NCBI RefSeq assembly: GCF_030684315.1
Contig: NC_081355.1
Coordinates: 130,195,178-130,259,177, forward strand
From: Stegostoma tigrinum
Lineage: Eukaryota
Length of the DNA: 64,000 bases
Direction: 5' to 3'
In this document: piece by piece, positions 2,691 to 64,000 of the stretch
How the letters are laid out: every line of letters starts with the position of its first letter
Position numbering within the stretch: the stretch's first letter is position 1
Made by a program: the position numbers and the translations under genes
Notes under the pieces: model-generated
What the model was told of the DNA's origin: nothing
The model's database searches: none
Seen by the model: the letters and a program-made list of their open reading frames with translations, nothing else

Positions 2691-5600
2691 TTATTTCAAA
2701 AAGCTATTTTACTTATGGACCTCAGAGCCAGGATCTTTAATTGGGATGATCTTCTAGCTGCAACATCCTCTGTGGATGTTACTAAATTCAATTCATTCAC
2801 AGATCATGAAGCTTTTCCAAAGCTAAAGAGGAACTACCAGGGCACTCAACTCTGTCTTGGGACAATTTTATCAAGTAACTAATCCCTTGGTAAATAAAAA
2901 TTGCACATTTCTCAACGTGATGCAAAGGAACTTAGTCTGGCCTCCCATCATTTCATCAATAAGTTTTAAGGATAACTATTTGAATAATCAAGTCCAATCA
3001 GTGATTGTGCAAGTTGAAATGACAAATCAAGCGACTGTAACAATGAAGGAATTGCTGATTTCACCCCTTTCTCCAAATAGGTATTGAAGCAAGGAAATCC
3101 AAGTTAGCCAATGTTTTAATTCTTTGCACGAATTGGCAACTAGTGGAACATAAAAACTGACCCTCCCGCAGAAAAAAAAAACTTACTGCAGTCAAAAAAA
3201 GCTTTAAATTTCATCAACTGAAATCACAAAATACAAAGAAATTTCCATATTCTGTCATGGAACAGCAATGTCAAAATTCTGAATTGTTATTCATTAAAAA
3301 ATGAGTCGTAAAAAAAATGTATAAGTGATGCCGAAATGGACACAAGTGTCAAGGTATTTGCAAAAGAATGAAGAAAGCAGGAAGACAACAACACTTTTAA
3401 AAAAGTCATTACATTCAGTCTGTTGAACATTGCAGTGGGCATTTGGGGTCACAATGTGTTTCCTTTACAGAGGACAAAACTAAAGCATCTTACAAATACC
3501 AAGCTAAGCATCCAGCTTTAAATAGATCCAGTTATAAATCCGGAAACAACACTGGCCTAATTTCATGTATTTGAATACCAAACAGAAAATTGTTATAAAT
3601 TCAACCCTCCCAACGAAAATTATCAATGATCATCAAAGTTTAAAAATATTCCGGTTTTGGAAGTTGACTTAATTTCCACACTGCAAGACATTAATCCAGT
3701 AGACAACTTCGAGGAGTTAATTTTTGCACAAATAGTGTACTTGAAGGTGTAGATGCACCTTAGTTTCATCTGTCAAGCTAAAAAGAAACAAGCTCAAGTG
3801 TACAGTCCGCACCCTACCAGCTCTTCTGCATGGAATCATATCTTCATTATCGGAAACAAAAAGAACTGCTTGCTTGTTAATTTCATCAGAATCAAAGAAG
3901 TAACTTCAGTGACAAGGGGTCCAATTTGAAGCAATTATCAACCTACCTCTGATGGAAAGGTTTTAAAATCAGTTTTCCTGATATACCCTCAATGATGAAC
4001 TCAGCAGTGAGTGAAATTAGCAGGAACCATTGGATATACCACCTATCTGAACTCTTCACCATATTAATTGCTGCATTAACAACAGAATTCTACAGTAGCT
4101 GGAAATAGGAAATGCAACTCTTTCAACAATGTTGTTTAATAAAATGTAATGGTCCAAAATAGATTATATGCAAAATAAATCCAAGAATGATACAGATTAT
4201 GGGGGTGGAGAACCAAGTCATTTTAAAACCAAAAACACGTGTCTGTTTCCAAACAGCTGCAGAAATAGAGAGGAACACAGAAAATCCAAACTAATAAAGC
4301 AATAATACACCAGGATATTAAAGCAAACTGTTATGGCTGCTGGAAACAGGGAATAAAACCAGAAAATTCTGGAAACAGTTTGTAAAGGGAAACAGATACT
4401 ACCTAGCCTGGTGATTGCGTCCAGCACTTTGTTGTTATTGCACAGTATATACAATACTGGCAGCTCATGTTTCTGTATACTCTCAGATCCCAGTACTTTA
4501 CCCAAACAACCAAAAGCTTCACAAATGCTCAGTGTAATAACAGAATTAAACATAAGGATTAAAGGCATACAAGAAAGCTAAGCCCTATAACTACTTTTAA
4601 TACTTTGATCAAGATAAATCTGCATCTGGTTCAGAGGTGGAGCTCCAATCAGGAAGGTTGTTTTTTGCTTTTTCTCTCCCCACAAGAACACCACCTTTAC
4701 ACACCAGTGTTATCGAGTTTAATGAATCATCTCAATCTTTTAAATATTATTTGCACCAACTTTGTACAGAATAATTCAGCCAAAGAAAACAATTTTATAT
4801 GATTCACAATAGTTAAGCAGTATATTCCGCATACCATTTGTTACTAAATGTCCTTTTTCTCAATATGAAAGTTAAAATTTTCAACTGAGTAGAAATGCAT
4901 ACTCATGGGCAACTTAAAACGGCAACTCAAAATTCCTGAGGGAGATGAAACAGTAGTCTCAGTACCAGCTTTAGGACGAAATAACATGCTAGTCAACTAC
5001 AATTTAGGTAAACTTAATTTGTTCCAAGATCTACAGCAGAGATTTCAATCAAATATCTCGAGGTCTTTTCTCTTACATTATATCTACTGACAGATATTTG
5101 CAACAGCCTTCATCAGCCAACCTGAGGGGGGAGACAGCCTAGGGATGAACCACTGCATCTTGAGAAACAGCTGATTATCATTAAATATTTTCTCTTTATT
5201 CTGCCTATGAAATGTAGAAGTTGCAGAAAGGTTTTTTACTGCTGCAGCAGTCCATTCCAGTAAATTATACACAATGTAACAACAACAACTTGGTGGCCTT
5301 GAAATTTCAGATCAAACCGATGGACAGTAACCACCTATGAATTCAAACCAATATTCGGGTTTAGTTTTGTTGAAACGCTTTGCACCCAGTTTTTTCCAAA
5401 TTAATATTCCTCCTTCAACTAATTATATTAAATCAGCAAAGTGATCATTCATCTCAGTTGACAAGTGAGAGACTTTGCTGTGCTTACTTAGCTGCTACAT
5501 TTGCCTACATGACAACAGTGCTCATACGTCAGTAATCAGAAATTTCAGCAATTTCAAGTAATCCACAGACTGTAAATTATTTCAAGGTATGAGGAATCCT

Positions 5601-6300: not shown

Positions 6301-7664
6301 CATGTCTGTCCTTTCAATAACCAGGGTTTAGGGTGGGGTGGAGGGGCAAGATGTGCAACTGGACTGCTTCAATCATATAACAAATCAAAACTGAATTTCA
6401 GGTCTCAGTCTTTGTGCCACTCAGGTGGCGTCTTTAAACTTCTTCACCAGAAGAACTGTTTTGGTGTGCAATATCCATTGCAAAATATTCATGATTCTCA
6501 AGTAGAAAGTGCTTTCACACAATAAACAGCTGTTTCCTGTAGCATGTTTGCAAACTGGAATTCAAAAGATGAAGCACTTAAGAAGCAATTTTCTCGTTTT
6601 CATCCAACTGATATAGCAGTGTATCAATCTCACAGCAGTGAAGGGGATTGGCAACAAACCTGCTGCCAGCAAATCCTCCAAAAGCCACCTAGTCACTGTG
6701 TGCGTGCGAAAAAGACCATGGTGAGATTTTTTTTGGGGGGGGGGGGGGGGAGGGCGGAGAATTCTTTGTACTGTGGGGAAGCAAACTTACTTCTCAGATA
6801 TTTCAAGTAGGATCTGCATCTCACCTGAAGAAAACCAGTCCTGCAGCTTTTGTAATTCCACTCATTTAAACGTGACCTGCTGCCTCGCAGGAGACTTTAA
6901 ACCTTAAACTGGAGAACAGAGCAGTAACTCAATGCAGCACTCTCTGTCGAGGTTTTGTCTGTTGCAGTACTTGGACTGCCAACAAGTGCAGGTCTCACAT
7001 CAGCAGTTACAGTATGGAGACTTCATCAGCAACACATGATTTATAATACACAGCTGAAAATTTGACTCAACTCAGAGACAGAGGCAGAGAGCGAGGGAGA
7101 TGTCTCAGTACAGGGCCAGTAAATCTTCACAATGTTTTGAAAGCACCAGGAGACAGCCTGGCAACACAATCAAAACAGTGACCTGTCTTTGCACTTTTGA
7201 ATTACGCATTACCACTACAGCAGAACTCTATCCCTGAGACTTCAAACTGAATGAAGCAGGCGAGACAACTTCTGTTAAGTCTCTCATTGCTACAACCCAA
7301 AGTCAGGTTACAAGCAAATTGGAAAACCAAAATACTTCAAGCAGTGAAAAGCTGAAAAAGAAAATGCTTAGAACATTTAAGCTGGTCAGCTAGCATCTGA
7401 TGGCAGAGACAGTGGTTGGGAGTGGGGGGGGGGGGGAGAGACGGATGGACGGACGGAGTTAATCCAAATTGAATTCAGCGCCCCTGTTCTTACATATTAC
7501 TGCAAAGAAATTAATCATTTCAAACTAGGTCCAATAGTATAATTACACACTGACATCTCAATAGATTTTGCTCCCTTGTCAAATAAATAGTATTTTGCTC
7601 GTACCAAAAGCAACTGTTGCCTTGGCCTTCTTTACGTAGCTTAGTTTTAGTTTATCTAGTTTGC

Positions 7665-8637: not shown

Positions 8638-8726
8638 GAGATAATGGGAACTGCAGATGCTGGAGAATCCAAGATGACAAAGTATGAAGCTGGATGAACA
8701 CAGCAGGCCAAGCAGCATCTCAGGAG
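8638..8726 (-). mobile_element. PLE terminus mini-insertion (family A) with 16-bp TSD
   Basis: Matches the terminus of the long PLE at 47656-47720. Flanked by a perfect direct repeat CAGTACACAACAGTCA at 8622-8637 and 8727-8742. Confidence 0.85.
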
Positions 8727-8898
8727 CAGTACACAACAGTCATCAGGATTACTGATACTCATTACCACGTTATTGTCCTTGCCTCCATTACTTTCAATGT
8801 CATCGTTGGCCCTTTATTTCTCTCGTTCTTTTCATATGCAACAAGTTAGTTTCACCTAAGCTGAATCACTTCTGCAAGAACATCTGAATTTGTATTGG

Positions 8899-9084
8899 AA
8901 ACCAAAAGAACTGCAGATGCTGTAAATCAGGAACAAAAACGGAAGTTGCACTTCTGAGGAAGGGTCACTGGAGCCGAAACGTTTACTCTGATTTCATCTT
9001 CACAGATGCTGCCTGACCTGCTGAGCTTTTCCAGCAACTTCCGTTTTTGTTCCTGATTTAGAGCACCCACAGTTCTTTCGGTTT
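8899..9084 (+). mobile_element. Fold-back mini-element (family B) with hammerhead-like core
   Basis: About 50-bp inverted arms (8899-8949 and 9034-9084). Core CTGAGGA-A-GGGTCACTGGAGCC-GAAACGTT at 8954-8983. Degenerate 14-bp TSD TGAATTTGTATTGG / TGACTTTGTAATGG at 8885-8898 and 9085-9098. Confidence 0.75.
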
Positions 9085-12870: not shown

Positions 12871-14402
12871 GAAACATAGAAGATAGAAGAGGTGGCCATT
12901 CAGCCCTTCGAGCCTACCCCGCCATTCTTCACAATCACGGCTGATCATCCAACTCAATCGACTAATCCTGCTTTCTCCCCATAACCTTTGGCTCTATTCA
13001 CCCCCAAGTGCTACATCCAGTCACCTCTTCAAGACAATCAATGTTTGGGCATCAACTACTTCCTATGGTAATGAATTCCACAGGCTCACGACTCTGGCTG
13101 AAGAAATGTCTCCTCATCTTTGTCCTAAATGGACTACCGCCAATCCTGGACAACAAAGTGCAGAGCTGGATCAACACAGCAGGCCAGGCAGCATCTAAGG
13201 AGCACAAGAGCTAACATTTCACGCCTAGACCCTTCATCAGAAAAGGGGGAAGGGGAGAGGGTTCTGAAATAACCAGGGAGAGAGGGAGAGGTGGACCAAA
13301 GACAGGTGGGGAGGAGAAGACAGGTGGGGAAGTAGGGAGGATGGACAGGTCAAGGGGGCGAGATGAGATTAGTAGGTAGGAAATGGAGGTGCGGCTTGAG
13401 GTGGAAAGAGGGGATAGGTGGGAGGAAGAACAGGTTAGGGAGGCGGGGACAAGCTGGGCTGGTTTTGGGATGCAGTGGGGGGAGGGGAGATTTTTGAAGC
13501 TTATGAAATCCACATTGATACCATTGGGCTGCAAGGTTCCCAAACTGAAAATGAGTTGCTGTTCTGTGACCCCTGGCTCTGGATATAGAGAACATTGTCC
13601 CTGCGTCTACCTTTCCCAGTCCTGTTAGAATTTTACAAGTCTCTATGCAATCAATCCTCATTCATCCAAATTCTAGCAAAACAATCCCAAACGAGTAAAT
13701 CTTGATCCATACGTCAGACCTGCAACCCCGGAAATCAGCCTGGCAAACCTTCGCTGCAATCCCTCAAGAGCAAGAGCATCCTTCCTCAGAAATGGAGACC
13801 AAAACTGCACACAATATTCTAGTTGCGGTCTCACCAAGGCCCTGTATAACTGCAACAGCACATACCTGCTCCTGTACTCAAAACCTCTCGCAATGAAGAT
13901 CAAAATACCAGTTTCCTTCTTTACTGCCCGCTGTATCAATTCCTGCTGCATACTCCTCTCTCCCCATTTACAGCCATTCAGGGAGTAATCTGTCTTCTTG
14001 TTTTTGCTTCCAAAGTGAATAATCTCACATTTATCCAAATTATACTGCATTGGCCACTGATGTGCCCACTCACCCAATCTGTCCAGGTCATGCTGAAGGA
14101 TCTCTGATCCTCCTCACAGTTCACCCTCCCACCCAACTTGGTATTCATCTGCAAACTTGGAGATGTTACGTTTTGTTCCCTCATCCAAATCATTAATATA
14201 TATAGTGAACAACCAGGGTTCCAGCACCAATCCCTGTGGTATCCCACTAGTTACTTCCTGCCAATTTGAAAAGGGCCCATTAATTCCTACTCTTTGTTTC
14301 CTCTCTGCCAACCAGTTTCCTATCCATCCCAGTACAACTACCTTATTCCCATTCGCTTTAATCTTGTGCATAATAACTTATGTAAGACTTTATCAAACGC
14401 TT
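12871..14402 (-). mobile_element. CR1 LINE, decayed, interrupted by a PLE fragment
   Basis: RT motifs [33 protein letters not shown]. 3' tail gaaacatagaagatagaagaggtggccattcagcccttcgagcct at 12871-12915. Confidence 0.88.
13151..13565 (-). mobile_element. PLE 3' fragment (GIY-YIG C-terminus, 3' UTR, degenerate hammerhead-like core) nested in CR1
   Basis: LGTLQPNGINVDF peptide shared with the 47984-48370 ORF. Minus-strand core CTGATGA-A-GGGTCTAGGCGT-GAAATGTT at 13240-13213. Confidence 0.85.
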
Positions 14403-18705: not shown

Positions 18706-18788
18706 GCTCTGATGAAAGATCATTGACCTGAAACATTAATGCTGTTTCTCTCTACAGATGCTGCCTGGTCTGCTAAGTATTTTGAGAT
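18706..18788 (+). mobile_element. Family B-like mini-element with hammerhead-like core, host of a nested family A fold-back
   Basis: CTGATGA-A-AGATCATTGACCT-GAAACATT-AATGC at 18709-18742, followed by the family tail tctctctacagatgctgcctggtctgctaagtattt. The element resumes after 19007. Confidence 0.6.
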
Positions 18789-18993
18789 AACAAAGTGTGA
18801 AGCTGGGTGAACACAGCAGGCCAAGCAGCATCTCAGGAGCACAAAAGCTGACGTTTCAGGCCTAGACCCTTCATCAGAGAGGTCTAGGCCCGAAACATCA
18901 GCTTTTGTGCTCCTGAAATGCTGCTTGGCCTGCTGTGTTCATCCAGCTTCACACTTCGTTATCTTGGATTCTCCAGCATCTGCAGTTCCCACC
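18789..18993. mobile_element. Fold-back PLE mini-element (family A) with intact minus-strand hammerhead-like core and 14-bp TSD
   Basis: About 84-bp inverted arms (18785-18868 and 18881-18964) with a 12-nt spacer. Minus strand TCT-CTGATGA-A-GGGTCTAGGCCT-GAAACGTC-AG at 18880-18848. Perfect TSD AAGTATTTTGAGAT at 18775-18788 and 18994-19007. Confidence 0.9.
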
Positions 18994-20905: not shown

Positions 20906-21460
20906 TAGGCATGCATGTAGTCATGTGTTGTTACATCACCAGGTTGGCACCTCTTTTTCACTGTTCAATCTGGTTTTCCTTCTCAGCATGCCATCCTGCA
21001 CTCTATTCTGGTGCATGAATGATCCTCTAGTATGATGACAATCATGGGGTGGGGAATATATCATGCCATTAAGTTACAAATGGTGTTGAATACAGTTTTG
21101 TTGCTGCTAATATCACTGAGCACCTCAGTTATAATTTGCTTGTTTTGTTCAGACACCATCCTATCCAGCAAAATGCGAGTGGCACACTCAAAGGACACTT
21201 CAATGTGAAAGTGGGTCTTTGCCTCCACAAGGTCTGTGTGGTGTTCACTCCTACAAATACAATAATTGACAGCTGCATCTACTACACGAAGACCGGTAAG
21301 GAAGAGGTCAAGTACATCTTTTCCTCTTGAAGTCCTCACGTCCACAGATTCAACCAGCATGGTCAGTGGTTCCAGAAAGGACCCAAAACATTAACCATGT
21401 TTCCCTCTCCACAGATGGTGCTAGGCCCACGGAGTTTCTCCAGCACTTCTGATTTTATTT

Positions 21461-23175
21461 TGGTCGGTGGTGATGACCGGGAGGGCTGGACATGGGATGA
21501 AGACAGCGATGGGGAGGTTTTGAAGCTAGTGAATTCCATGTTGAGGTTATTGGGCTGGTTAGTGTGGAGTGGACAAAGGAGTCATGGAGAAAGTAGTCCC
21601 TACAGAAAGCAGACGGGGTGGGAGGGGAAGCTGTCTTTGGTGGTGGAGTTTGATTGCAGGTAGCAAAAAAGTGACAAAGAATGATGCACTGGATACAGAG
21701 GTTGCAGAGTGGCATACGAGAACAAGGAATAAGGTGCTGTTCCTCTAATTCTTGCATTGCCTCATTGTGACATTGGAGGGGGCCCAGGATGGACATACTG
21801 CTGAGGGAGTGGGAAGAGAAGTTGAAATGTTCGGCAACCAGAAGGTGGTGTTGATTGGAGCGTACAGAGCGCAGATGATCCGCAAATCTGTCACCGAGTC
21901 TGCGCTGGTCTCACCCATGTAGAGGAAACCACATCAGGTGCAACAGATGTAGTTGACCAGGCTGAAGTACAGGTGAATCCCTGTCAGATACAGAATTGTT
22001 TCTGGCATTGGAAAAAGGTGGAGGGGCAGTGTAGGGGCAGGTACTCCCAATTCCTCAGATAATGGGAACTGCAGATGCTGGAAAATCCAAGGTAACAAAG
22101 TGTGGAGCTGGATAAACACAGCAGGCCAAGCAAGTCCTAAGATGCTGCTTGGCCTATGTTCATCCAGCTCCACACTGTGTACTCCCAATTCCTCCACCGC
22201 TTCTGCTCCTGGAATGAAGCTTTCCACTTCAAGGGCCTAAATTTCCCCTCTCGTGTGATTCATATTACCCTTAAATGCATCTCTTGCATTTCCCACACTT
22301 GTGCCTCCAAACAACCTTCCCCCAACAAGGATAGAGTCCCCCTGGTCCTCCCTCATACGCCATCCCACCAACCTCTGAATCCAATGTATCGTCCTCCGTC
22401 ACTTTTGCTACCCACAATCAGGCACCACCAGAGATATTCCCCTCCCAGCCCTCTACTTTCTGCAGGGACAGTTCTCTCGGTGACTCCCTTGTCCATGCCA
22501 CACTAACCACCAACCACTCCACACCCAGCAACTTTCCCTGCAGCCGCAGGAAATGCTATACCTCCCCTCTCACCTCTGTCCAATGCTCCAATCATTGTGT
22601 CTGACAGGGATTCAGCTGTACATCTTCCAACCTGGTCTACAGCATTCGGTGCAACTGATGTGTTCTCCTCTACATCGGTGAGACCAAGTGCAGACACTTG
22701 ACAGATCTGCAGAGCATCTGTGCTTTGTACTCTCCAAACAACACCACCCCTTCTGATTGCCAGCCATTTCAATTCCCCCTCCCCCTCCCTTAACCACATG
22801 TCCATCCTAGGCCTCCTATGTCCCAATAAGCCACACAAAAACGCCACCTTTTATTCCACTTGGGAGCTTACAGCCCGATGGCCTCAACATAGAATTTACT
22901 GGCTTCAAAATCTCCCCACCCCCAAGCCTTATCCCCAGTCCAGCCCACCTCCTTGACCCGACATAACCTCTCACCTATCTGCCCCACCTTCCCAGTGACC
23001 AATCTCCACTATCCCCTGACCTGCATCCACCTATCACCATACCCCCAGCCTTACTCCCTGTATTTATTTCTGAGCTCCCTCCCCTATCTCCAGTCCTGAT
23101 CAAAAATGTCAAATTTCCTATTCCTCTGACGCTGCCTGACCTGCTGTGTTCCTCCAGCTCCACACAGTATTGACA
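21461..23175. mobile_element. Decayed PLE with an inverted 5' part: GIY-YIG segment on minus (21461-22040), RT end/GIY-YIG/3' UTR on plus (22041-23175)
   Basis: Minus strand MSILGPLQCHNEAMQELEEQHLI. Plus strand YSQFLHRFCS.NEAFH, PCSRRKCYT, LLYIGETK, ASHFNSPSPSLNHMSILGLL, and the terminal gctgcctgacctgctgtgttcctccagctccacac. Confidence 0.85.
22057..22178. mobile_element. Fold-back PLE mini-element (family A) with 16-bp TSD, nested in a PLE
   Basis: Inverted copies of the PLE terminus. Perfect TSD GTACTCCCAATTCCTC at 22041-22056 and 22179-22194. Confidence 0.88.
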
Positions 23176-24827: not shown

Positions 24828-24915
24828 CTTGAGGAAGGGTCACCGGACCTGAAACGTTAACTGTTTTCTCCTCCACAGATGCTGCCACACCTGCTGAGCT
24901 TTTCCAGCAATTTTG
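24828..24915 (+). mobile_element. Family B mini-element with hammerhead-like core (C3U variant)
   Basis: TTGAGGA-A-GGGTC-ACCG-GACCT-GAAACGTT-AACT followed by the family tail ctccacagatgctgcc...ctgctgagcttttccagcaa. Confidence 0.65.
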
Positions 24916-28663: not shown

Positions 28664-28795
28664 GTTCTGACGAAAGGTCACCTGACCTGAAATATTAATT
28701 CTGATTTCTCTCCACAGATGATGCCAATCCTGAGCTTTTCCAATGTCTGCCTGTTTTTGCCTGACTTCCAGCATTCACAGTTCTTCGGCTTTTTT
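28664..28795 (+). mobile_element. Family B mini-element with hammerhead-like core
   Basis: GTT-CTGACGA-A-AGGTCA-CC-TGACCT-GAAATATT-AAT at 28664-28699, then the family tail to cacagttcttcggctttttt. Confidence 0.7.
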
Positions 28796-37015: not shown

Positions 37016-38270
37016 ATGAATATTCTTCAATAGTGATTCTGTGAATGAGATTGTCAATGGAGCTAAAAATTACCATTCAGTACTGACTGACATGCGTTAA
37101 TTGTTCAGGCTAGTGGAAGAGAGAATTGGGAGGGCAAACCTACACGCAGGTTTTTCTCAACATTAAATTCACACTCTAGCACGTGCCAAATCTGCACCAC
37201 CAAAGCAGCTTAGATTAGATTAGCCCAGTATTTGTGAACAGTATTATTATCTTCATTGTAGGAGAAGAGGAGCACGCAACAACAAACACACATCTGATGA
37301 ACTACAGTCCATTTCTCTTGCAATGCATTGCATACAATCCAGGGCTGAAAATTAGTTCCAATAAACTGGTCAGAGAACAGTTGGGACACCCAATATATGT
37401 GGCACAAACCTGGAAGCCAAAAACATAATACTTTGTGGTGGATAAAAAAATTTCCTTACAATCAAAGAGTTTTACATAACTGAGAAAGAATCTGGCAATA
37501 ATTTTTAATATTTGAGGAATTCCACATTCCATAAGGAGTCCAATAGTCCTACTTTAGAGTGATACTTTGCGAGCTCCTTGAAATAAACGTCTACCTTGAT
37601 AAATATGATCTTTCACTTGCACAATTTTTTGAGCTACATTTTAAAGCTACTGGGCAATCCTCTCAGGTTCTACTTTCCACATATTTGAGTTCACCTAAAA
37701 AACCTGGTTGCCAGTCCTAAATTGCACCAGGTCCAGCTATCAGCTGTCACTCCTCTGCCTGCTGACTAACACTGACTCCCAGTTAAGCAAAGTCTCAATG
37801 CTAAAATTCTTTTCCCTGCTTTCAAATTCCTCCACAGCCTCGCGCATTCCCATCTCTAATCCTGCCAACCCTACAACGCTTGAAGGAAAAAACAGGAAAT
37901 ATTTGGTCAGGCAATATCTACGAAGACAGGGGAAAAAAAAAATCAGTTCACATTTCAGGACCTTTCATCCCAACCTCAAAGATGTGTGCACTCCTCAAAA
38001 TTCCAGCGTGTTAAATATCCAATTTTAATACCTTCAATACTGGCTCGAATTTCAAGGCTGTACACTCTGGAATTCTCTCCCAAAACTCCTTTTCCTCTTC
38101 TAAGTTGCTGGTAAACACCTACCTCTACAACAAGGTTTGTAGTCACCTAATGTCATATCCCTTTATCCAGTTGAATGACGAGTCTTGCTTGATAATGCTT
38201 CTAGAATCATTTCAAATGGATGACATTCAATCTATCAACTCCAAGCCAGCTTTCTAAGGGACCCCTCTTC

Positions 38271-38522
38271 AGGGTCCAGGCCCGAAACATCAGCCTTCCT
38301 GCTCCTCTGATGCTGCTTGGCCTGCTGTGTTCATCCAGCTCTGCACCTTGTTATCTCAGATTCTCCAGCATCTGCAGTTCCGGCTATCTCTGAAACAGCT
38401 TTAAGCCCACTGCGGAGCCTCTAAGGATGCCCACGCCGAACAAGTTACCCTCCTCCCTCCGGAAAAACCTCAGTGGATCTCTTGCCCACCACAACTCTCT
38501 CGTAATCTCTTCGGCCTTGAAA
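38271..38522 (+). mobile_element. PLE terminal repeat piece: partial hammerhead-like core, terminus, and read-through into the putative ORF start
   Basis: agggtccaggcccgaaacatcagc...cagttccggctatctctga, then gatgcccacgccgaacaagttaccctcctccctccgg...tcggccttgaaa (MPTPNKLPSSLRKNL...), homologous to 43510-43602. Confidence 0.8.
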
Positions 38523-41820: not shown

Positions 41821-43774
41821 CATTAAGATATTGAAATGGTTGAAAAGAAATATTTAAATATCATCCAAAAAAAATTTTACATCTAACTATACTCTAGAGT
41901 ATAGAGTTTATTCTCTGTTCTCAAAATTCTACCAGAGCTTTTTTGGACACTGAAGATGGGGAAAAAAGACACTAGAGAAGTTTTTGCAGAAATGACCAGG
42001 AGATTAATTAAAACTATTCAGCCGATTTAGAAAGTAGTAACTTTACCCTCAGAACAAGAAACATTAAGAATTGATTGGCTTTGGTTCTACGATAGGGACT
42101 TATTTTGCGAAGACTAGGATCGAGTTCAGGTGTAATGCTTTCCATTTCACACAGTCCAGTAACACTCAATGTCAAGGTTCACAGGATTCTAGACACTTGG
42201 AATTAATTTTATTGGAAAAATTTAACTTGCTGCCTGGGGATTAAGTGGCATAACACAGTCACTGGAAAGAAGTGCAAAAGGGAAAATGGAGGGCAAGAAA
42301 GTGAATTGGTATTCCTGTCCAGACTTCTGGAAGATAGTTACAGGAACTCTGATGATGACAGTAATGAAAACAATTTTCTTGGGGGTTGAACTAGGAGTCA
42401 TTTATGGCCGATTACTGAGGGGGTGCATCTTTTTATTTTACTGCTGCAGTCCTTAAGCGAGAATATTGCCCTACTATGAGTGTGGCACAAGTTGATAAAT
42501 GAATTGTCATACAAACAAGAAAGTCAGAATGGTATGTATCATGGAACAGAATCTGGCATGTAATGGTGTTCTGAAGAGAGGCAGCAGCTATCTAAGTACA
42601 CTCTCACATTAAGAAAAAAAGGTGTAGTCCTAATCTAGTGGCAGAGGGAGGATAATTTTGACTGATGTCAAGACATCTTGTGTATTATCGTGACTAGCTA
42701 TCCAGACCAGCGGTAAGTATTTGACTGTCCTCCTAACCTTACATTTGTAAAGTGAAGGGACTAAGTCACCACGTGACAAGAAACCAAAATTGCAACCCTG
42801 CTCTAATAGTCAAAATACACATGGTTCATGGAAAATTGTGACCAGTGCTTTGGGGCCTGACAACCCTATTTTTTTTTTAAACTAAGTATCTTGGAGGAAA
42901 GCATAGAGATGGTGAGTTCAAGATCCATTCAAGGAATTTCCGCTGTGATGCCCTGGAGCTGAAATGGCTTGCTCTAAAATCCAAAGCTAATTCCAAGGAA
43001 AATTTGCTATGTCTCTAGGGATTTGAGGATCTTCTTCAGTTTTGCAGGGGTCCCTTGATGGCCTAGTCAGTCTAATGCTGCTCTAAATGCCAAGACCAAT
43101 ACCCTTGCCCTTCCTTTAATATTAAAGTCTTGATCCAAATCGAGGGTCAAAAAGGTACAAAGAAGAAGTCCGAAGCAAAGTAGCAACTTGTAGAACTCAA
43201 GTGAATGCAATAGCGTAAACTGTCCCTTGCTGATACTATTGACCAATCGGCCATGATTTCAGGAATGTGTATTGTGTCAATTTCTTTTGTCATTTCTCCC
43301 ACTGAGCCCGATTCCCTCATTCTGGAGGTGTAACACTAAATTGAGTTTCTTTTCCACAACTCTGTCAAATAAAAAGGAAGCAGTTCACAGCTGCCAGTCT
43401 CCAGAATCCAAGCCAAAAAGGTGCAAATAGACAAATAATGCGTGATTTCCCATAGCCAAGTAAACCTTCCGATAAACCTAACTCAAAGTTGGTAAAGACT
43501 CTTCCAGTGATGCCTAACCTGAAGTTACCCTGCTCCCTCCGGACAAACCTCAGGGGATCGCTATCCCACTGCAACTGTCTTGTAATCTCTTCGGCCTTGA
43601 AACTGCTCCATCCCTGCCCCTTTAACTTATCTGTCTCCTCTCCACCCATCTTCTCCTCTATCCATCTTCAATCCACCTCCCCCTCTCTCCCTGTTTATTT
43701 CAGAACCCTCTCGCCATCCCCCTTTTCTGAAGAAAGGTCTCGGCCCGAAACGTCAACTTTTATGCTCCAAAGAT

Positions 43775-43781
43775 ATGGGGG

Positions 43782-43835
<54 letters not shown>

Positions 43836-45287
43836 CCACTGGAGTCGTACCTGAGGACTGGAGAGAGGCAAATGTAATTCCTCTCTTCAAGAAAGGAAAT
43901 AGGGAAATCCCCGGCAATTACAGACCGGTAAGTCTCACGTCTGTCGTCTGCAAGGTGTTAGAAAGGATTCTGAGGGATAAGATTTATGACCATCTGGAAG
44001 AGCATGGCTTGATCAAATACAGTCAACACGGCTTTGTGAGGGGTAGGTCATGCCTTACAAACCTTATAGAGTTTTTTGAGGATGTGACTAGTAAGGTTGA
44101 TGAGGGTCAAGCTGTGGATGTGGTGTATATGGACTTCAGTAAGGCATTTGATAAGGTTCCCCATGGAAGGCTCATTCAGAAGGTCAGGAGGAATGGGATA
44201 CAGGGGAACTTAGCTGCTTGGATACAGAATTGGCTGGCCAACAGAAGACAGCGAGTGGTAGTAGAAGGAAAATATTCTGCCTGGAAGTCAGTGGTGAGTG
44301 GGGTTCCACAGGGCTCTGTCCTTGGGCCTCTACTGTTTGTAATTTTTATTAATGACTTGGACGAGGGAATTGAAGGATGGGTCAGCAAGTTTGCAGACGA
44401 CACAAAGGTCGGAGGTGTCGTTGACAGTGTAGAGGGCTGTTGTAGGCTGCAGCGGGACATTGACAGGATGCAGAGATGGGCTGAGAGGTGGCAGATGGAG
44501 TTCAACCTGGATAAATGCGAGGTGATGCATTTTGGAAGGTCGAATTTGAAAGCTGAGTACAGGATTAAGGATAGGATTCTTGGCAGCGTGGAGGAACAGA
44601 GGGATCTTGGTGTGCAGATACATAGATCCCTTAAAATGGCCACCCAAGTGGACAGGGTTGTTAAGAAAGCATATGGTGTTTTGGCTTTCATTAACAGGGG
44701 GATTGAGTTTAAGAGTCGTGAGATCTTGTTGCAGCTCTATAAAACTTTGGTTAGACCGCACTTGGAATACTGCGTCCAGTTCTGGGCGCCCTATTATAGG
44801 AAAGATGTGGATGCTTTGGAGAGGGTTCAGAGGAGGTTTACCAGGATGCTGCCTGGACTGGAGGGCTTATCTTATGAAGAGAGGTTGACTGAGCTCGGTC
44901 TCTTTTCATTGGAGAAAAGGAGGAGGAGAGGGGACCTAATTGAGGTATACAAGATAATGAGAGGCATAGATAGAGTCGATAGCCAGAGACTATTTCCCAG
45001 GGCAGAAATGGCTAGCACGAGGGGTCATAGTTTTAAGCTGGTTGGTGGAAAGTATAGAGGGGATGTCAGAGGCAGGTTCTTTACGCAGAGAGTTGTGAGA
45101 GCATGGAATGCGTTGCCAGCAGCAGTTGTGGAATCAAGGTCATTGGGGTCATTTAAGAGACTGCTGGACATGCATATGGTCACAGAAATTTGAGGGTGCA
45201 TCCATGAGGATCAATGGTCGGCACAACATTGTGGGCTGAAGGGCCTGTTCTGTGCTGTACTGTTCTATGTTCTATGTTCTATGTTCT
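43775..45287 (+). mobile_element. Young 5'-truncated CR1 (HER1-type) LINE with uninterrupted RT/C-terminal ORF2
   Basis: About 450 aa without stops ([58 protein letters not shown]), stop at 45193, (TGTTCTA)4 tail at 45261-45288, probable TSD AAAGAT at 43769-43774 and 45288-45293. Confidence 0.96.
43777..43833 (+). repeat. G8(AG)24 microsatellite at the CR1 5' junction
   Basis: Direct reading. Confidence 0.97.
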
Positions 45288-45762
45288 AAAGATGCTGCTT
45301 GGCCTGCAGCGTTCATCCAGCTCCACACTTTGTTATCCGTAAAGTTGGTAAACACAACTCATGAATAACTAGCTTCAGGTAACAATCACTAAAATTGTTC
45401 TCCAGGCAGGGGAAGCTTTGCCACGGCATTTTGTTAATTTTTTTTAAAAATTGCATAATGTGGTTAAGTTCCAGCAATTCTTCTGCCCTTGGCACAAAAC
45501 AAAGACTGACTAGAGCTGCATCTTCTCTACCATTGCTTTAGTTCAAATTCAAACAACTTTTATTTTTGCAAGCTAGCCAGTTTCTGGCATTTATACGACA
45601 TAGCCCAGCTTCTTTACCCAGTAGCAGACTCAGACCAGGTATTTCACTAGCATAGTAGATTTAAATAGTAATTTTGGTGGTTAACCGCTGCATAATTGTT
45701 GGAAGACAAAAAGGGCCCGTTTGTCTGTATTACTCACAATGTGAAAGTAATTTCTTGTTCTT

Positions 45763-47655: not shown

Positions 47656-49375
47656 AATCCAAGATAATAAAATGTGAGGCTGGATGAACACAGCAGGCCA
47701 AGCAGCATCTCAGGAGCACAAAAGCTGACGTTTCGGGCCTAGACCCTTCATCAGAGAGGGGGATGGGGAGAGGGAACGGGAATAAATAGGGAGAGAGGGG
47801 GAGGCGGACCAAAGATGGAGAGGAAACAAGATAGGTAGAGAGGAGAGTACAGGTGAGGAGGTAGGGAGGGGATCGGTCAGTCCAGGGAAGACAGACAGGT
47901 CAAGGAGGCGGGATGAGGTGGTAGGTAGGAAACGGAGGTGCGAATTGGGGTGGGAGCAAGGGATGGGTGAGAGGAAGAACAGGTTAGGGAAGCAGAGACA
48001 GGCGGGGCTGGTTTTGGGATGCAGTGGGGGGAGGGGACGAGCTGGGCTGGTTTTGGGATGCAGTGGGGGGAGGGGAGATTTTGAAGCTTGTGAAGTCCAC
48101 ATTGATACCATTGGGCTGCAGGGTTCCCAAGCGGAATATGAGTTGCTGTTCCTGCAACCTTCGGGTGGCATCATTGTGGCACTGCAGGAGGCCCATGATG
48201 GACATGTCGTCTAAGGAATGGGAGGGGGAGTTAAAATGGTTCGCGACTGGGAGGTGCAGTAGTATGTTGCGAACCGAGCGGAGGTGTTCTGCAAAGCAGT
48301 CCCCAAGCCTCCGCTTGGTTTCCCCAATGTAGAGGGAGCCACACCAGGTGCAACGGATACAATATACCACGTTGGCAGATGAACATCTGCTTGATATGGA
48401 AGGTCATCTTGGGGCCTGGGATAGGGGTGAGGGAGGATGCGTGGGGGCAAGTGTAGCACTTCCTGCGGTTGCAGGGGAAGGTGCCGGGTGTGGTGGGGTT
48501 GGAGGGCAGATTGGAGCGGACAACGGAGTCGCAGAGAGAGTGGTCTCTCCGAAAGGCAGACGAGGTTGGGGATGGAAAAATAGCTTGGGTGGTGCGGTCG
48601 GATTGTAGATGGCAGAAGTGTCGGAGGATGATGATACGTTGTATCCGGAGGGTGGTGAGGTGGTACGTGAGAACGAGGGGGATCCTCTGGGGGCAGTTGT
48701 GGCAGGGGCGGGGTGTGAGGGATGTGTTGCGGGAAATGCGGGAGACGCGGTCAAGGGCGTTCTCGACCACTGCGGCAGGGGGGAACGTTGCGGTCCTTGA
48801 AGAATGTGGACATCTGAGATGTGCGGGAGTGGAAAGCCTCATCGTGGGAGCAGATGCGGCAGAGGCAGAGGAATTGGGAATAGGGGATAGAATTTTTGCA
48901 GGAGGGTGGGTGGGAGGAGGTGTATTCTAGGTAGCTGTGGGAGTCGGTGGGCTTGAAATGGACATCAGTTACAAGCTGGTTGCCTGAGATGGAGACTGAG
49001 AGGTCCAGGAAGGTGAGGGATGTGTTAGAGATGGCCCAGGTGAACTTGAGGTTGGGTGGAAGGTGTTGGTGAAGTGGATGAACTGTTCGAGCTCCTCTGG
49101 AGAGCAAGAGGCGGCGCCGATACAGTCATCAATGTAACGGAGGAAGACGTGGGGTTTGGGGCCTGTGTTGGTGTGGAAGAGGGACTGTTCCACGTAACCT
49201 ACAAAGAGGCAGGCATAGCTTGGGTCCATGCGGGTACCCATGGCCACCCCCTTTGTCTGTAGGAAGTGGGAGGAATCGAAAGAGAAGTTGTTGAGGGTGA
49301 GGACGAGTTCGGCTAGGCGGATTGGTCGTGCCTGCGGGACAGGAAGAAGCGGAGGGCCTCATGGCTCCGGACACA
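47656..49375 (-). mobile_element. Penelope-like element (Neptune-type), 5'-truncated, frameshifted RT + Cys linker + GIY-YIG endonuclease + 3' terminal repeat
   Basis: AMGTRMDPSYACLFVGYVEQ, FLRYIDDCIG (RT catalytic motif), FLDLSV, KPTDSHSYL, PCNRRKCYTC (Zn-finger-like linker), VYCIRC..CGSLYIGETKR (GIY-YIG), LGTLQPNGIN. Confidence 0.95.
47724..47757 (-). ncRNA. Minimal type I hammerhead ribozyme-like motif in the PLE terminal repeat
   Basis: CU-CUGAUGA-A-GGGU(CUAG)GCCC-GAAA-CG-UC|AG. All core nucleotides are present. Stem II is 4 bp, stem III is reduced to the ACGU palindrome, stem I is only 2 bp. Predicted cut between 47727 and 47726. Confidence 0.7.
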
Positions 49376-54013: not shown

Positions 54014-54155
54014 AGATAACAAAGTGTGGAGCTGGATGAACACAGCAGGCCAAGCAGCATCTCCTGAGATGCTGCTTGGCCTGCTGTGTTCATCCAGCTC
54101 CACATTTTGTTATCTTGAATTCTCCAGCATCTGCAGTTCCCATTATCTCTGATAC
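54014..54155. mobile_element. Near-perfect fold-back PLE mini-element (family A, lacks the ribozyme core) with 15-bp TSD
   Basis: 51-bp arms 54013-54063 and 54066-54116 with one difference. TSD AACATTAAATATTTA / AACGTTAAATATTTA at 53999-54013 and 54156-54170. Confidence 0.9.
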
Positions 54156-55269: not shown

Positions 55270-55740
<471 letters not shown>

Positions 55741-56196: not shown

Positions 56197-56258
56197 ATCT
56201 GATGAAGGATCCCTGAAACTGCTTGACCTGCTGAGTGCCTCCAGCTCCACACTGTATC
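56197..56258 (+). mobile_element. Deleted PLE-terminus remnant with partial hammerhead-like core
   Basis: CTGATGA-AGG-ATC-CCT-GAAAC, then directly tgcttgacctgctgagtgcctccagctccacac. The cleavage triplet region is missing. Confidence 0.5.
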
Positions 56259-56279: not shown

Positions 56280-57640
56280 CGTCTGTTCCGTGAATTCGAG
56301 AGCTGGCACTGAGAGTGTGCAGGCAGAGCTGGATTGGGTGACCGGAAGACAATCAGCTATTGAGTGCATAGAAGACAATTCGCTCTTTCATGGAAGAGAG
56401 ATGGTTCCTTGGCATGACAAGTGCAGTAGTGACGGAATATACATGAAAGGAAATAGCTGTTTCTGCAGTTATGAATCCAGAAAGGTGTGTTGTCTCCCCA
56501 ATGCCAGAGGCCGTGATATATTGTGTGGCTACAGGGCACTTGGAAGGGGAAAAGTGAACAAGCAGAGGTCATGATCCAAATTAGTGGGCACAGGTAGAAA
56601 GAGGGGTGAGGTCTTATAGGAAGACCTTTGTGGGCTGGCATGGAGACTATCATTCAGGACCTCAAAGAATTAGTCTCCAGACTACCTCCAATGCCAAGAA
56701 TTAGATGGTACAGAAGCAAAAGCACAGAAAAATGTGTGGTTGGAGAGATGGTGCAGAAATGAGGGATTCCTACATCTCTGGGGATCGTTCATGGGAAGAT
56801 GGGACCTGTACAGGCTGACAGGTTGCACCATAACAAAGCTAGGACCAATGTCCTCATGGGATGCTTAGCTGATTGGCAAAGGTTGGGAAATAGCATGTAA
56901 CATTAGAAAGAAGAAACAAGGTCTGCAAAAGATTCAGAGAGATAGCATTGAACTAAGCAAAAACCAAATGAACTGCAGATGCGGTAAATTAGAAACAAAA
57001 ACAGAAATTGATAGAAAAGCTCTGCAGGTTTGGCAACATCTGCGGACAGTCATAGAGAGAAATCAGAGTTTAATATTTCAGATTGAGTGAACCTTCCTCA
57101 GAACTTCTGAATCTACTCAGAGCAAAGAAACAATAAAGGTGTAATACTGGGTGTTTTCTAGAGTTCAGAAGTTACAGAGGAATAAATTTGCAGCTAAATT
57201 ACACACAGAGATACAAACAAACTGAAGAATATTGAGAATAGGGGCTTTAATAATCCAGCTACATTTTGAGGTATACTAACAGTATAAAGAGCAGAGATGG
57301 AGAAGCATTTTGGAAATGCATTAATGGAAATTTCCTTGATTTGTATGTTCCTGGTCCAATGAGCTCAGAGGGCATTGTGGAACCTCGATTAAGGGAATGA
57401 GTTGGATCAAGTGTCAGTCAGGGAATGTGTAGGAAACAGTGATCATTGTATCATAAGATTAAATTGGCAACTGAAAGAAACAATATGTCATTTAGAGTCT
57501 AAATGCTTAATTGGAATAGAGCCAAATTCTGTATGGTGAGAACGGATCTGCCCCAGGTAAATTGGCATTAAACAGTAGCAGACAAAACAATGGTCTTATT
57601 TTTAAAGAAGAGCTGGAACAGTTGCAATCAAGGTACATTG
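56280..57640 (+). mobile_element. Decayed CR1 5' region (ORF1 SGNH-esterase-like and ORF2 endonuclease remnants)
   Basis: FCSYESRKVCCLPNARGRDI...GKSEQAEVMIQI (CR1 ORF1-like); ggaaacagtgatcattgtatcataagatt (G.SDH). Confidence 0.65.
56958..57110 (-). mobile_element. Family B mini-element with hammerhead-like core
   Basis: Minus strand AGTT-CTGAGGA-A-GGTTCACTCAATCT-GAAATATT-AAACTCTG and the family tail ...gcatctgcagttcatttggttttt. Confidence 0.65.
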
Positions 57641-63087: not shown

Positions 63088-63185
63088 TTTTCTGAAGGAG
63101 GGTCTTGGTCCGAAACGTCAGCTTTCCTGCTCCTCTGATGCTGCTTGGCCTGCTGTGTTCATCCAGCTCTACACCTTGGTATCTC
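63088..63185 (+). mobile_element. PLE mini-insertion starting 4 nt before a variant hammerhead-like core; 12-bp TSD
   Basis: TTTT-CTGAAGG-A-GGGTCTTGGTCC-GAAACGTC-AG...ttatctc. TSD AGACACTCAAAA at 63076-63087 and 63186-63197. Confidence 0.85.
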
Positions 63186-63432: not shown

Positions 63433-63658
63433 AGAGATGATAGGAACTGCAGATGCTGGAGAATCTGAGATAACAAGGCATAGAGCTGGATGAACACAGC
63501 AGGCCAAGCAGCATCAGAGGAGCAGGAAGGCTGACGTTTCAGGCCTAGACCCTTCTGCAGAAAATGAATTCAGACCCTTAGGCCCACAACACCAGCTTTC
63601 CTGCTCCTCTGATGTTGCTTAGCCTGCTGTATTCATCCAGCTCTATTTCTTGTTATCT
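63433..63658. mobile_element. Fold-back PLE mini-element with mutated core and 15-bp TSD
   Basis: Inverted copies of the terminus. Minus-strand core CTGCAGA-A-GGGTCTAGGCCT-GAAACGTC. Perfect TSD CATGTCTTTGGCTAC at 63418-63432 and 63659-63673. Confidence 0.88.
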
Positions 63659-64000
63659 CATGTCTTTGGCTACGATGGGTTTGCTCAACATCACTCTCCT
63701 CCTCACTAAGCCTAAGTTCTACCATCATCTCCATCCTTTAAATTGACTTTCCTGTTTAATTTGCAACTTCTGAAGTTCAAACTCGGTCTCTTTTTCTTTT
63801 TGCCCAGCCAAGAACATTCTGTCCTTTTCATTATCTTCTAACGTGGCTCTTCTTTACCTTTCTTTCTTTTCTGCTTTTGACTGTAATTCAAAATCTCTTT
63901 CTTTTCTTTCATTCTCTAACTCCAGTTGTCTCATTTGCAAATTAATTTTTTCCTAACTCCACTGCACTTGCCTGTTTCTCTGACATACCTAGGTGTTTGA

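Follow-up and report, generated by a model that had tools for sequence, protein, structure and literature searches.

Motif sites and host gene in the window

The window is the whole 64,000-nucleotide stretch of DNA analysed here, and coordinates without a locus label refer to it. On its minus strand lies the first coding exon of a PARD3-family gene (55525-55656). The next exon is found 83 kb past the left end of the window, so the window left of 55525-55656 is intron. A second locus of the PARD3 family is present on C9, which makes PARD3 and its paralogue inseparable here, and the gene is therefore named at the family level. Within the intron, at 47660..49359 (minus strand), lies a 5'-truncated and frameshifted Penelope-like element (PLE) of putative Neptune type, comprising a partial reverse transcriptase (RT), a Cys linker, a GIY-YIG region and a 3' pLTR.

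The 3' pLTR contains an intact core of a minimal hammerhead ribozyme (min-HHR), here called family A, at 47727..47754 (minus strand), with C3 at 47754, G12 at 47734 and C17 at 47727. The sequence is CUGAUGA-A-GGGU(CUAG)GCCC-GAAA-CG-UC, which fits the motif quoted in an earlier note on this DNA. Stem II (47735..47746) has 4 bp (GGGU/GCCC) and a 4-nt loop, next to an unpaired A at 47747. Stem I (47725..47756) has 2 bp, pairing 47756-47755 (CU) with 47726-47725 (AG), and the third pair is U.C. The ACGU palindrome at 47728..47731 is predicted to form stem III solely between two RNAs, following the model of PMC4209133. As C17 is 47727, the cut after GUC is predicted at 47727/47726, in agreement with the position proposed earlier.

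The earlier note claimed about 12 hammerhead-like cores in 64 kb, and all 12 were found in place and on the strand assigned to them. The copies are thus real; as a count the figure is low, the window holding 24 pLTR-type fragments, of which 12 are extra and lack part or all of the core. Such extra fragments lie at 8670-8728, 21380-21445, 22090-22175, 23104-23165, 37938-37959, 38271-38358, 45291-45337, 54014-54119 and 63580-63660, and several of them form inverted pairs. Inverted pLTR pairs are present at 18850-18966 and 63466-63660.

Besides 47754, a second intact family A copy (18850..18877, minus strand) is short, with its start some 4 nt ahead of the core, and stands head-to-head with a partial copy at 18881 (plus strand). 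The family A copy at 13213..13240 (minus strand), which terminates a PLE remnant (13564-13165) on its 3' side, is decayed, with AUGU as palindrome and one stem II pair broken. A family A/A2 copy whose stem II has an A.C mismatch at its base (43727..43754, plus strand) lies inside an internally deleted PLE. Family A2 is represented by 63092..63119 (plus strand), where A9 is changed to G, and by 63533..63560 (minus strand), where A6 is changed to C; the latter is located upstream of the first coding exon of the host and has an inverted partner at 63580 (plus strand). The partial copy at 56199..56222 (plus strand) carries an internal deletion and lacks palindrome and stem I. Two family B copies, both without stem I, are found on the plus strand: 8954..8983, having the full core and ACGU with one stem II mismatch, and 24829..24858, having U at position 3. 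The family B/C copy at 28667..28696 (plus strand) has the full core, 5 bp in stem II, 3 bp in stem I and an AUAU palindrome that is likely the result of double CpG decay. The family C copy at 18709..18737 (plus strand) has ACAU, whereby the palindrome is lost, and a stem II mismatch. Finally, a decayed family B/C copy with AUAU and stem II mismatches (57072..57101, minus strand) lies upstream of the first coding exon.

All 11 core letters are intact in eight of the 12 copies, 47754 included, and the literal ACGU in seven; the remainder read AUGU, ACAU, AUAU (twice) and ACUG. Core, paired stem II, palindrome and a stem I of at least 2 bp occur together in three copies (47754, 18877 and 28667). 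All the stem II and stem I forms quoted earlier, three of each, were seen among the 12 sites. The statement that N7 varies freely needs qualification: U, A, G and C all occur, although mostly in a family-specific manner, with U in 45 of 49 family A copies.

A strict descriptor was defined as the core, a stem II of at least 4 bp and NN-U-H. It matches four times in the window, compared to a mean of 0.04 (maximum 1) in 100 first-order Markov controls. Elsewhere in the genome, 80 sampled 10-kb stretches (800 kb) gave 73 matches, compared to one in the reversed sequence. An Rfam scan of the window returned zero hammerhead matches, even at E up to 10. The same database gave a MIR2118 match at 63464-63661 (39 of the 85 bits needed), which we rejected as a reflection of the inverted pLTR pair.

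The carrier element

The earlier note tied the motif to PLE termini and placed the 47754 core at the 3' end of a long PLE. The core does lie in the 3' pLTR, but the element is only a remnant of 1.7 kb out of 3.7 kb. The remnant is 88% identical to full-element positions 1938-3691 in L111, one of 20 loci with long open frames that were picked from 150 scored protein matches. L111 holds a whole element in which both pLTRs carry the motif (at 3225 and 6804, 3,579 nt apart), on the two sides of the ORF, and which is flanked by a direct repeat of 10 nt. L112 is likewise a tandem case, with the motif on either side of the ORF.

The element has the features of EN+ PLEs, namely a single ORF with RT and C-terminal GIY-YIG, pLTRs, and inverted truncated copies. 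At L126 an 823-aa frame contains RT, DKG, a C-x4-C-x2-C linker and GIY-YIG. Pfam matches of the L126 protein come in the expected order, with scores below the curated cut-offs (RVT_1, 24.1 of 29.6 bits; GIY-YIG, 18.3 of 22.6 bits). A PDB sequence search with the PLE protein P0001 gave zero matches at E up to 1. A CX2-5CxxC linker between RT and EN is given for Neptune and Nematis in the available part of PMC8557442, and the C-x4-C-x2-C linker of P0001 fits this pattern. On account of this linker we call the element Neptune-type; the label rests on motifs and is common to Nematis as far as the linker goes, and the clade of the family A carrier is accordingly a putative one.

Some further observations were made on PLE sequences. 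In L111 a long pyrimidine tract (6740-6803), which has CAG as its last letters some 23 nt ahead of the core, resembles a 3' splice site; a base of this site is changed in the 47754 copy, and few copies start there. In the window, 43456-45193 (plus strand) is an internally deleted PLE in which the start of the ORF (43495-43608) is joined to the 3' pLTR and then to a (GA)n run, followed by a LINE-type RT fragment in a single open frame of 530 aa (RVT_1, 122.6 bits). PLE remnants of greater age, with about 68-71% identity to the L111 element, occupy both strands at 21726-22947.

Families and copy numbers

In the 3.2 Gb genome the exact patterns of four families were counted, resulting in 102,682 matches for family A, 7,740 for D, 4,047 for B and 50 for E, and zero for the reversed controls. 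Together these are more than 114,000 exact matches, and about 290,000 motifs are extrapolated from 73 per 800 kb. A further 10,814 copies of family A carry G12A. Sequence downstream of the motif is common to A and B, and to B and C, while D and E are unrelated to these and to each other.

Endonuclease homology within 900 nt upstream was found for 28 of 98 copies of A, 6 of 75 of A2, 7 of 59 of B, one of four of C and five of nine of D. From this low linkage we conclude that most copies are short solo or inverted pLTRs. Four of the family B cases have a common upstream stretch, and the others look like neighbouring elements. Linkage to a PLE is direct for A and D, weak for B and C, and absent for E. 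In family D a second type of PLE, with a different GIY-YIG region, has a frame that runs into the motif and stops within stem II (L154:933-1534; L143-L154); we take this to be a Poseidon-type PLE. Family E (L131-L142:1501) has an AGCU palindrome and a stem I of 3-4 bp; in the 12 loci viewed the common upstream sequence amounts to only a few bases, and a linked PLE ORF was not found.

Structure, covariation and decay

Read from sequence, the proposal of a PLE-terminal minimal type I hammerhead that has no stem III loop, and whose stem III could form solely between two molecules, holds. Helix III and loop 3 are missing and positions 15.2-16.2 are palindromic, as ACGU in families A, B and D and as AGCU in E. 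Helix II begins with G10.1-C11.1, or G-U in some CpG-decayed copies, with an unpaired nucleotide after A9. Helix I directly follows N17 and is short, with 2 bp in A, where it is the weakest of the four families, and 3-4 bp in B, D and E. Three pair types are seen at I.1 (U-A, A-U or C-G) and three at I.2.

Stems I and II covary across families, as claimed earlier, and so does the palindrome. Among 26 hand-picked natural intact copies anchored on the motif, 31 of the 32 majority pairs of A, B, D and E are paired; the permutation mean was 18.5, and a value as high was reached in 0 of 100,000 permutations. Family E was shifted by one column in the MAFFT alignment and was therefore omitted from the tool count, being treated by motif anchoring. 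For 20 copies of A-D the tool counted 92.8% paired compared to 80.1% in shuffled sequences (0 of 500 as high), and the signal is destroyed by sliding the partners. Because the stems were read from the same hand-picked sequences, both tests lean to the favourable side.

A resemblance by chance, multiplied by amplification of a repeat so that identity is by descent only, seems highly improbable. It would account for the fact that most copies belong to one family with a near-constant N7, and for the missing Rfam match. The covariation speaks against it, as do the agreement with the published consensus (PMC4209133) and the presence of the same motif on the second PLE type of family D, which has a different endonuclease region; by family D and covariation this reading is largely refuted. 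The flanks of the covarying families D and E are unrelated.

Decay was followed in family A using 49 in-register copies, obtained from 165 flank matches of which 50 had both flanks. Damage is concentrated at CpG; G12, the general base, differs in seven copies, 15.2 in three and 16.2 in 10. Core positions outside CpG differ less often than free positions (7/490 vs 22/441, p = 0.002), the difference having p = 0.06 once G12 is included. Covariation and CpG damage fit a selection in active lineages followed by neutral decay after insertion.

Folding was assessed on single and paired RNAs. The stability of the 136-nt monomer is unremarkable (z 0.77), and its predicted fold is not a hammerhead. In a 44-nt stretch of family A, the hammerhead formed as a dimer is at -5.5 kcal/mol compared to a cofold minimum of -38.0 kcal/mol, and a competing pairing of CUGAUG with CGUCAG, across the cut site, is predicted in the monomer, in a model that ignores tertiary contacts of the core. 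Stem II with its loop (47735-47746, minus strand) is near-palindromic in family A, and an intermolecular duplex is predicted. The model suggests that cleavage in family A may be slow or chaperone-dependent.

Orientation relative to the host gene

The earlier note placed the minus-strand copies in the sense orientation of the PARD3 pre-mRNA. This applies to 47754, 18877 and 13240, which are in the intron, but not to 57101 and 63560, which lie upstream of the first coding exon. Altogether, three of the 12 copies are intronic and sense, five are intronic and antisense, and four are upstream of the exon.

It is very doubtful that the intronic sense copies have been recruited by the host for cutting or regulating its pre-mRNA. 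The intact family A copies 47754 and 18877 are both sense in one intron, 29 kb apart, and could pair in principle. We reject co-option because there is no excess in density, the four strict matches in 64 kb being not above the 73 in the 800 kb sample, and no strand bias with three sense and five antisense intronic copies. Furthermore, over about 200 nt the 47754 copy has 95-98% identity with the 39 other copies that scored best, and the active fold is disfavoured in the folding model.

Where copies begin and end

The 5' ends of copies were surveyed in 1.32 Mb of unselected sequence, using one natural reference per family; alignment ends are fuzzy, and the diverged reference of family B gives artefact peaks inside the core. 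Between -8 and +1 from C3 we found 34 of 162 5' ends in young A, 53 of 112 in A2 and 28 of 87 in B (115/361). Ends within 3 nt of the predicted cut number five in A, two in A2 and three in B (10/361), and between -30 and -9 there are three in A, six in A2 and three in B. The pooled binomial p values are 1e-16 and 2e-44. Family D has no such cluster (0 of 11).

An alignment-free check agrees with the cluster, as 7,031 head-to-head pairs with cores within 30 nt were found genome-wide, 832 of them being exact -4/-4 joins. Among 50 sites listed, the spacer is 4-10 nt in 33 and at most 18 nt in 49, judged by eye. Clustering at the 5' edge and head-to-head joins are seen at 18850-18966 and 63466-63660 as well as at L086 and L076. 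For PLEs, head-to-head pairing with palindromic junctions has been described (PMC3846280). A published statement that the junctions sit at the 5' edge of the hammerhead was not found in a search of the openly accessible literature, PMC5785218 excepted.

The simplest reading of the start cluster suggests a defined RNA 5' end at -4/-5. Tentatively, and with somewhat more doubt than confidence, we propose that RNA of these Neptune-type elements starts at a site resembling an initiator, 4-5 nt upstream of CUGAUGA. The hammerhead would then form the 5' end of the transcript, stem I would thereby be capped at 2-4 bp, and tens of thousands of copies in the genome would record reverse transcription to an uncut end. 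If true, the ribozyme is a brake or a late step that does not produce the template, and the genome is a large in vivo record. In family A the base at -4/-5 is a C in a TCT initiator-like context, a short motif and as such weak evidence; the TCT initiator consensus is YC+1TYTYY. In family B it is an A that agrees with 5 of 6 letters of BBCA+1BW as given in the available part of PMC5287114, likewise a short motif of little weight. Drosophila Penelope has an internal promoter with its start upstream of the intron (PMC2377424). A rival for the cluster is release of the reverse transcriptase after copying the CUGAUG/CGUCAG hairpin. Under either the start-site or the release reading, there is no peak that would stem from templates cleaved at the upstream hammerhead. 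Since copies rarely begin at the cut site, we infer that cut RNA is not the usual template for insertion.

At the other end, family A copies (L111:3225-3360 and sampled copies) stop near +75, +91-94 and +128-129 from C3, the ends near +75 being in part due to subfamily divergence. The distance between the last two, about 35 nt, resembles the known PLE tail. Among short copies that start at the core edge the longer tail is no more frequent than among long ones (26/69 vs 35/76), so that an origin from the 5' pLTR is unsupported by the tail test.

Proposed mechanism

We consider it probable that the motif is a minimal type I hammerhead of the PLE pLTR, which in an active element would cut the element's RNA after GUC as two molecules joined via ACGU:ACGU, likely with the help of the element's own protein, and that the copies in the window are likely inert remnants. 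Two motifs in tandem, read-through or paired RNAs would join through ACGU:ACGU, and the core and stem II of one motif would act on the cut site of the other. Cleavage after GUC would be slow and probably involve the element's own protein. It may trim or limit multimeric RNA, and the uncut RNA would serve as template for insertion.

Cleavage itself is inferred by analogy with PMC4209133 and PMC11167929. In the former, the min-HHR monomer is inactive while dimer and trimer are weakly active. In the available part of the latter, the hammerhead of an anole PLE cleaves only with the PLE protein and is dispensable for insertion in vitro, and RNA-seq reads ending at the cut are reported as none.

A motif that does not undergo G12-dependent cleavage at C17 is an unlikely, though not negligible, alternative. 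It is in line with the 2 bp stem I and the competing hairpin, and with 5' ends that cluster at the 5' edge of the core and not at the cut. It also agrees with the normal insertion of catalytic mutants in vitro (PMC11167929, available part) and with the proliferation of Naiad PLEs without canonical hammerheads, which may be parasites of PLEs (PMC8557442, available part). On such a reading it is difficult to see why the 11 core letters, the U-H cut site, the register of stem I and the palindrome are kept in A, D and E despite unrelated downstream flanks, and why the non-CpG core of family A differs less than free positions (p = 0.002, or 0.06 including G12).

Comparison with known systems

The earlier note regarded the motif as a new, extreme, obligate-dimer variant. 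This does not hold, as the form was already defined in 2014 by Cervera and De la Pena (PMC4209133): the min-HHR lacks helix III and loop 3, neither being needed, and acts as a dimer, a definition repeated in the available part of PMC6155905. Their Fig. S3 contains many GAAA-C-G-U-C/U motifs, some with a helix I of 2 bp (Culex, Oikopleura and Drosophila), and examples of GAAA-CG-UC with a stem I of 2-3 bp. Consensus and examples of that figure cover each feature thought to be extreme, and the claim of novelty is therefore unsupported.

The shark motif shares with the min-HHRs the type I topology without helix III and loop 3, the palindromic 15.2-16.2, the extra nucleotide between 9 and 10.1, G10.1-C11.1 and a short helix I. 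It also shares a place in each of the two pLTRs, a predominance of solo dispersed copies, close pairs on opposite strands and several families per genome. The Acropora Neptune motif of that study resembles family A in its 4 bp stem II and GAAA-CG-UC-AGC context. The copy number here exceeds the figures of that study for coelacanth (4,000) and Xenopus (9,000), and the 2 bp stem I of family A falls among the shortest of those published. Shark or chondrichthyan terms are absent from the two supplementary files of PMC4209133 that were searched.

The variants of Lunse, Weinberg and Breaker (RNA Biol, PMC5785218), compared by way of their description in the available part of PMC6765202, are similar in being PLE-linked, with a reduced stem III and cleavage as dimers. 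EN+ PLEs of the Neptune clade (PMC8557442, available part) share RT, the CX2-5CxxC linker, which Nematis also has, and GIY-YIG at the C-terminal end, as well as partial tandems, inverted 5'-truncated copies and a tail.

Non-LTR retrozymes and canonical type I hammerheads (PMC7229834 and bioRxiv 10.64898/2026.07.22.740005, available parts) are likewise type I with dimer cleavage in amphibians, and the 126,247 motifs counted for the axolotl are comparable to the number here. They differ in having helix III, contacts between loops 1 and 2 and short tandem arrays, whereas the shark motifs are loop-less and dispersed at PLE ends. In terms of the canonical class, the shark motifs have no helix III, a helix I of 2-4 bp and not 6, dispersed copies and not 200-400 bp tandems, and no Rfam match. 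One chondrichthyan is included, for retrozymes, in the available part of the 2026 preprint.

As a ribozyme class the motif adds little, the loop-less obligate-dimer form being known since 2014. What is added is a host group not listed in the searched supplementary files of PMC4209133, and a very high copy number. A further parallel is the Anolis Poseidon element PAc (Frangieh et al. 2024, PMC11167929), which also has a hammerhead in the pLTR, uncut RNA as template, a 30-40 bp tail and alternative 3' ends at two points some 35 nt from each other, compared to +91-94 and +128-129 here. PAc belongs to another PLE clade, the ORF of family A starts well downstream of the motif, and protein-assisted cleavage, shown in PAc, is a prediction here. 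As genomic evidence, the accumulation of 5' ends at the leading edge of the motif and the lack of a peak where the cut is predicted agree with the uncut-template result obtained in vitro for PAc in 2024, and they bear on the question of the in vivo role of PLE hammerheads.
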